A stretch of 52,432 nt of DNA from Escherichia coli. GTDB lineage: Bacteria > Pseudomonadota > Gammaproteobacteria > Enterobacterales > Enterobacteriaceae. Of the stretch, positions 2,888 through 3,682 are shown in pieces. Location of the stretch: the NCBI RefSeq assembly GCF_003334315.1, contig NZ_QOWR01000029.1; one strand, 5' to 3'. The notes under the pieces are model-generated. The model ran no database searches. It saw only the letters and a list, made by a program, of their open reading frames with translations, and was not told where the DNA came from. Every line of letters begins with the position of its first letter. Position 1 is the first letter of the stretch. Both the position numbers and the translations under genes were made by a program.

Positions 2888-3682
2888 TCATAATAATTGC
2901 GGCGGCGCAAAGCGACGGTTGTTTAAGACGGGCAGTTGCGCGCGCACCTGACGCACACGTTCGGGCGTCACTTCCGCCATAATGAGTGCAGGCATTTCTG
3001 ACGCTGCCGCAATGGTGACGCCAAAGGGATCTATAATCCGGCTTTGACCGATATTTTTGTTCCCGCACTCCCCCGCCGCCACCATATAACAGGTGGTATC
3101 CAGCGCACGAGCGGCAAGCAACGTTGACCAGTGATGCTCTTTGAGCGGCCCGCGAACCCAGGCGGCAGGAAGTACCAGGATTTCAGCTCCCTGTAATGCC
3201 TGTGCCAGCGCCAGCTCTGGAAAGCGTAAGTCATAACAGGTCATCAGACCGACCTTCATCCCTTCCACCTCCAGTAACGGAGCGATTTCATTACCAGCAT
3301 CAACACGGCGTGATTCCTGAATGGCAAATGCATCATAGAGATGCAGTTTGGCATAACGGGCGACGATGTTTCCTGCCTGAAGTGCCACCAGCATATTCCA
3401 TGCGCGCCCCGGCGTTGAAGGAACATGAATCGTCAGAATTGTCGTCATCATGTTACGTTTACTTTCTCGCCGTAAACGTCCGAGGAATTCGCCGTCCAGC
3501 AGCTGTGCTGATTTAACCGATAGATCTGCATCATGATCATCGCGCGCCAGCAATGCTTCCGGCAGGACAAACAGCGATACGTCGTTTTCCGCCGCCTGCG
3601 CCATCAACGAGGCACAAATCTCAGCGTTCTTTTCCCACACAGATGTAACAGCAAACTGTCCTGCGGCAACCAGCATTGCCAC
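2888..3682 (-). CDS. ybeM: carbon-nitrogen hydrolase (nitrilase superfamily, Nit1-like amidase); apparently intact here
   Basis: 264-aa uninterrupted ORF; C-N hydrolase-like sequence at the ybeM position between tatE and crcB. Confidence 0.8.

Follow-up and report, generated by a model that had tools for sequence, protein, structure and literature searches.

The ybeM locus and its reading frame

In the window, by which we mean the whole 52,432-nucleotide stretch of Escherichia coli DNA that was analysed, the genes lipA, tatE, ybeM, crcB, cspE and pagP follow one another in this order, so that ybeM sits between crcB and tatE, as it is annotated in K-12, B, 720632 and TOE3. A mechanical list of the open reading frames in the window contains an uninterrupted minus-strand frame at 2888..3682, which starts with GTG and encodes 264 aa; an earlier note on this DNA, which left the strand unstated, had reported 264 uninterrupted codons, and for the mechanical frame this was confirmed. 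The third codon of the frame is an ATG at 3676–3674, upstream of which the minus-strand letters read ACAGGAGGTGGCA. Inspection of the sequence placed a Shine-Dalgarno motif, AGGAGG, at 3682..3687 on the minus strand (read 3687–3682), and the GTG at 3682–3680 shares the final G of this ribosome-binding site. Since AGGAGG lies 5 nt 5′ of the ATG, the GTG overlaps AGGAGG, and in all the intact genomes that we inspected RefSeq uses the form of 789 bp and 262 aa, the real ybeM coding sequence is almost certainly 2888..3676 (minus strand, 262 aa plus stop), with boundaries drawn from the open reading frame, the NF033621 and PF00795 matches and the RefSeq annotation of intact genomes. The two surplus codons of the mechanical frame, GTG GCA at 3677..3682 on the minus strand, fall outside this coding sequence, as RefSeq starts at the ATG, and the count of 264 codons is almost certainly an artefact of mechanical calling.

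Compared with the intact alleles of B, O157:H7, ATCC 11775, 8178, 720632 and TOE3, the window ybeM showed no frameshift or premature stop, and the catalytic cysteine is kept, which bears out the earlier description of the gene as intact.

Family assignment, catalytic residues and predicted fold

The 262-aa product matched the NCBIfam model NF033621, "deaminated glutathione amidase", with 453.4 bits (E = 2e-136), 98 bits over the cutoff of 355, and the match covers model positions 2–260 of 260. The earlier proposal that this Nit1 homologue acts as a deaminated-glutathione (dGSH) amidase thus agrees with the product name used by RefSeq and by NF033621. A single Pfam domain was detected, CN_hydrolase (PF00795; residues 3–245, model positions 2–255 of 256, E = 3.4e-41), placing the protein in the nitrilase superfamily. 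The YafV-type model NF007757 reached 58 bits (cutoff 249), and the aguB, nitrilase and formamidase models all remained far under their cutoffs. The Yersinia-type dGSH amidase model NF043013 gave 82.6 bits, where the cutoff is 500; it describes a separate bacterial dGSH amidase family, of which the window YbeM is not a member. Searching a large protein collection returned orthologues that are 72–84% identical, almost always have a length of 262 aa, and come from Citrobacter, Salmonella, Leclercia, Kosakonia, Enterobacter and others; their number runs into the thousands, and most of those retrieved bear the name deaminated glutathione amidase.

Among solved structures, the best sequence match was the Nit domain of Caenorhabditis elegans NitFhit (1ems; 107 bits, E = 8.7e-30), next came Saccharomyces cerevisiae Nit2 (4h5u; 96 bits, E = 1.9e-26), and Kluyveromyces lactis Nit2, mouse Nit2 (83 bits, E = 3e-22) and yeast Nit3 (75 bits, E = 5e-20) ranked after these two. 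With yeast Nit2 counted as a Nit1 orthologue, YbeM appears from these scores to be nearer to Nit1-type than to Nit2-type proteins, by a modest margin of 107 and 96 bits versus 83 and 75 bits. The eukaryotic Nit1 branch (mammalian Nit1; S. cerevisiae Nit2 in entries 4h5u, 4hg3 and 4hgd; NitFhit in 1ems) is ~28–30% identical to YbeM and shares with it the fold (TM 0.83), the Glu-Lys-Cys(+Glu) residues and the annotated reaction, whereas YbeM is shorter at 262 aa, has neither a Fhit fusion nor a targeting sequence, and lacks both the ~5-residue insertion after the catalytic lysine and the loop insertions of yeast Nit2. The Nit2/YafV omega-amidases (mouse Nit2, 2w1v; yeast Nit3, 1f89; NF007757) have the superfamily, fold and triad in common with YbeM but score lower against it.

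The earlier note had suggested looking for the Glu-Lys-Cys triad of the superfamily, and alignment to NitFhit and yeast Nit2 located it together with a second glutamate. The general base, Glu40, is encoded at 3557..3559 (minus strand, as are all four codons) in an LPEA motif that aligns with the LPE of both proteins, while Lys110, the catalytic lysine, is encoded at 3347..3349 in a KLHLYD motif aligned with their KLHLFD. Glu121, encoded at 3314..3316 in a QES motif, aligns with their ES motif; we assign it as the second glutamate of the catalytic set by analogy with the nitrilase superfamily. The TGT codon at 3236..3238 specifies Cys147 of the TCYD motif, which we assign as the nucleophile because its alignment column holds Cys in wild-type yeast Nit2 (4h5u), replaced by Ser in 4hgd, the C169S mutant. 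All four residues (E40, K110, E121 and C147) are invariant across 20 enterobacterial orthologues, and no change at a catalytic residue was seen in either the solved-structure or the orthologue alignments.

An AlphaFold2 model computed from the orthologue alignment reached a mean pLDDT of 79.7 and a pTM of 0.84, with low confidence at residues 174–191 and 251–262. When this model was compared with the PDB using Foldseek, the best matches were K. lactis and S. cerevisiae Nit2 (TM 0.83, probability 1.00), and NitFhit was matched at the same level; YbeM is accordingly predicted to adopt the alpha-beta-beta-alpha sandwich fold. The top Nit2 fold matches include a PDB entry with an "endogenous peptide-like ligand".

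Intact and frameshifted alleles and the strain background

A 995-bp query spanning 2788–3782 found its counterpart in 5425 of 5426 complete E. coli genomes, in all of which the matching gene is annotated "deaminated glutathione amidase" beside crcB; over this interval, none of the complete genomes has full (100%) identity with the window. The common E. coli YbeM, WP_000959109.1, which occurs in B, O157:H7, 720632 and TOE3, shares 261 of its 262 residues with the window protein and has the same length, start, crcB-ybeM-tatE-lipA context and product name. The lone amino-acid difference is E61D, which arises from an A>C SNP at gene position 183 (window position 3494, minus strand; allele alignment). 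This replacement is conservative, because Asp is found at position 61 in most orthologues and in NitFhit, and a protein identical to that of the window, E61D included, already stands in public records (UPI000B42C5FA, ELO4884857.1 and others; 53 contigs) under the name "deaminated glutathione amidase [Escherichia coli]".

Aligning the window with the six intact alleles of 720632, B C3029, TOE3, ATCC 11775, O157:H7 PA20 and 8178 revealed 29 variable sites, 23 of them silent (22 at the third codon position and one at the first), and the remaining six produce five replacements: A22G, D32E, E61D, G66D and R124H. Silent changes thus predominate and the catalytic residues are unchanged, as purifying selection would lead one to expect. 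The B allele differs from that of the window at 7 sites.

In K-12 MG1655, ybeM is annotated as a "frameshifted" pseudogene, in line with the earlier note, the frameshift being due to a 1-bp deletion that removes a G from codon 67 (gene position 200). The window retains this base at 3477 (minus strand) and hence does not carry the K-12-type pseudogene allele, though the two copies occupy the same locus and are 99.6% identical over 995 bp; the statement of the earlier note that other lineages have the gene intact likewise agrees with the annotation of other genomes. Two missense changes, V33A and V37A, are also private to K-12 ybeM, and the window has neither. The porcine ETEC strain UMNF18, also annotated as frameshifted, has the deletion without V33A and V37A, so the missense changes in K-12 probably followed the frameshift, which suggests that they represent decay of the gene after it was inactivated. 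Across window positions 454–6700, three of the four mismatches to K-12 and the single gap fall within the 789-bp ybeM, a cluster that would stem either from the relaxed constraint under which the K-12 pseudogene evolves or from a small patch of recombination.

An 80-mer with the K-12 deletion was found, by exact match, in 859 of the 5425 complete E. coli genomes, and of ten evenly spaced carriers about seven came from humans, animals, farms or rivers and were not laboratory derivatives of K-12. The count and the presence of wild isolates among the carriers point to the intact gene as the majority state and to the deletion as a natural polymorphism. The fuller reading, in which the K-12 frameshift is a natural polymorphism carried by ~1 in 6 complete genomes, from people, pigs, farms and rivers, and the lineage of the window, wild and nearly isogenic with K-12, has kept ybeM, is one on which we would place even odds.

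Truncated YbeM-like protein clusters, 205–215 aa in length, were also encountered, and two of them were considered as common inactivating alleles and rejected. The 214-aa cluster P0065 implies a 1-bp deletion in an A5 run at codons 206–208, and the corresponding 80-mer was present in 0 of 5424 complete genomes at >=99%; the deletion probably stems from a homopolymer error in the assembly of short reads. Cluster P0054 (215 aa) has a +1 insertion near codon 51 and occurs on only 3 contigs, and the third, P0071, is a partial call with E121K.

To the other side of lipA, the contig begins inside an IS1 element that ends at 453, and this IS1 fragment (1–453) abuts a ybeF remnant at 454–1281 without its N-terminus. 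The annotation of TOE3 lists the same features, with an IS1A transposase, a ybeF "missing N-terminus", lipA, tatE, an intact dGSH amidase and crcB, and over 27 kb TOE3, which was isolated from human faeces in Myanmar, differs from the window by 7 SNPs and 1 indel, the IS1 insertion being common to both. A Shigella origin, which the IS1 and the want of a fully identical complete genome had made us suspect, was rejected in view of this match to TOE3-like E. coli and of the 53 contigs on which the exact protein is recorded as E. coli. The full-length IS1-ybeF junction is present in at most 81 of the 5426 complete genomes; ybeF is intact and free of IS1 in K-12 and B, and 720632 also has no IS1 in ybeF. 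Over its first 25 kb, the window is about 100% identical to the DNA of a group of natural isolates. A SNP relative to TOE3 lies in crcB codon 6, at window position 3785, and the CrcB protein of TOE3 is WP_433824316.1, while that of K-12 and 720632 is WP_000939747.1.

Over window positions 454–6700, strain 720632 differed by 2 mismatches without gaps, TOE3 by 4 mismatches without gaps, K-12 MG1655 by 4 mismatches and 1 gap, and E. coli B C3029 by 40 mismatches and 8 gap positions, making 720632 the nearest genome locally among those aligned and the window ~10 times closer to K-12 than to B over 6.2 kb. By these alignments, the window strain is a close relative of K-12, one that would never have acquired the ybeM deletion. 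The earlier note had taken the IS1 in ybeF, together with the intact ybeM, to mark a non-K-12 background and had named the B lineage as one possibility. At the ybeM/ybeF locus the first part holds, since the window carries neither the deletion nor V33A or V37A but does have an IS1 in ybeF where K-12 has none. The B lineage is contradicted by the 40 mismatches and 8 gap positions and by the intact, IS1-free ybeF of B, and the strain inference should thus be mended from "B-like" to a K-12-like, phylogroup-A-type background without the deletion.

Proposed function and its alternatives

Judging from sequence, the window very probably carries an intact chromosomal ybeM in a K-12-like strain, encoding a 262-aa Nit1-type dGSH amidase of the nitrilase superfamily (EC 3.5.1.128) that would act in dGSH repair or salvage. 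For the window strain, we infer the substrate, the chemistry and the expression. In the mechanism that we propose, transaminases would now and then deaminate the gamma-glutamyl amino group of glutathione to give the 2-oxo form, dGSH, whose amide carbonyl would be attacked by Cys147 of YbeM with Glu40 acting as the base, while Lys110 and Glu121 would stabilise and position the intermediate. Cys-Gly would leave as a thioester forms, hydrolysis of the thioester would release 2-oxoglutarate, and the overall reaction would amount to metabolite repair or salvage. E. coli and other bacterial Nit1 homologues were reportedly found by Peracchi et al. (PNAS, 2017) to be good dGSH amidases. A full-text literature search returned no kinetics for the E. 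coli enzyme. The attribution of dGSH activity to bacterial YbeM draws on the NCBIfam name and a review (PMC7041631), the latter being the literature basis for the hydrolysis of dGSH to 2-oxoglutarate and Cys-Gly.

For expression of the gene, we scanned the 92-bp spacer between ybeM and crcB and found no sigma-70 consensus promoter on its minus strand, and the sole terminator-like match near the end of ybeM was weak; nothing is concluded from these scans, because they returned no more sites than shuffled controls. Neither a fluoride riboswitch nor any other RNA element was detected in the spacer at the Rfam gathering threshold. In alignment with TOE3, a strain with the common allele, the DNA upstream of ybeM (3677–3768) showed no difference. 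In CFT073, an NsrR ChIP peak lies in ybeM, and expression is about 0.3-fold under NO stress (PMC5320621). In UTI89, over-expression from pBAD24 of short, out-of-frame fragments internal to ybeM, in either orientation, leads to filamentation, whereas the full-length ORF causes none (PMC6206680).

The length of an open frame is by itself weak evidence for a gene in this window, because a 282-aa shadow ORF at 1406..2254 (minus strand) lies antisense to lipA (1490–2455, plus strand), and the ybeM frame might, by the same token, be a chance or shadow ORF and no gene. Against this stand the strength of the curated-family match, the thousands of orthologues and the concentration of variation at third codon positions, which leave a chance origin with a negligible probability and effectively exclude it; it is homology, decisively, and not length that argues for ybeM as a gene. 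A different possibility is that the protein is real but misnamed, being an omega-amidase of the Nit2/YafV kind or a generic amidase or nitrilase with a physiological substrate other than dGSH. The fold and triad are common to all branches of the superfamily, mouse Nit2 and yeast Nit3 still match YbeM with TM ~0.8, and N-carbamoylputrescine amidase structures almost equal its best fold matches; however, the top matches in both sequence and fold belong to the Nit1 branch, and the cutoff of NF033621 alone was exceeded, with the YafV, aguB, nitrilase and formamidase models falling far short. E. coli also has a distinct gene, yafV, for the omega-amidase role. We therefore regard a substrate other than dGSH as quite improbable.

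It could also be supposed that the window copy is intact and yet functionally dead, either silenced or inactivated by its private E61D change. This replacement is missing from all 5425 matching complete genomes, the scan gave no consensus promoter (with the same proviso about shuffled controls), and the 859 genomes with the frameshift make it clear that ybeM is dispensable. Yet residue 61 is Asp in the majority of enterobacterial orthologues and in NitFhit, the upstream DNA is the same as in strains with the common allele and includes a strong Shine-Dalgarno motif, and the gene is transcribed and regulated in CFT073, so that a dead copy would seem slightly less probable still than a misassigned substrate. 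An active dGSH amidase remains the reading that we prefer.

The gene, its protein variant, its intact majority state and its pseudogene status in K-12 are all known from public annotation. What is learnt in K-12 about the repair of damaged glutathione cannot be carried over to most E. coli, which possess the enzyme. The loss of Nit1 in eukaryotes leads to mild phenotypes (PMC7041631), with which a frequent deletion allele in wild isolates is in keeping. If our reading is true, near-isogenic pairs of intact and frameshifted strains would constitute a natural experiment on the fitness value of bacterial dGSH repair.

Elsewhere in the window, Rfam models matched a cspA thermoregulator at 4158–4600 (minus strand; 124 bits, gathering score 78), covering cspE and its leader, an rnk leader at 17586–17694 (plus strand; 125 bits), an STnc70 sRNA at 22907–23000 (minus strand; 42.7 bits, barely over threshold) near ahpC/dsbG, and an ES036/CssrF sRNA at 51527–51568 (plus strand; 40.5 bits), the last three being matches at the gathering threshold. 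By synteny with TOE3, the region from ~25000 to 52432 holds ybdN-ybdM-ybdL (ybdL encodes a methionine-oxo-acid transaminase), hcxA and cstA, and the complete enterobactin cluster from entH to entD together with fep and fes. In TOE3, an IS4-like IS421 follows entD, at about the point where the window ends, and with IS1 at its start the window looks like a draft contig flanked by IS copies.
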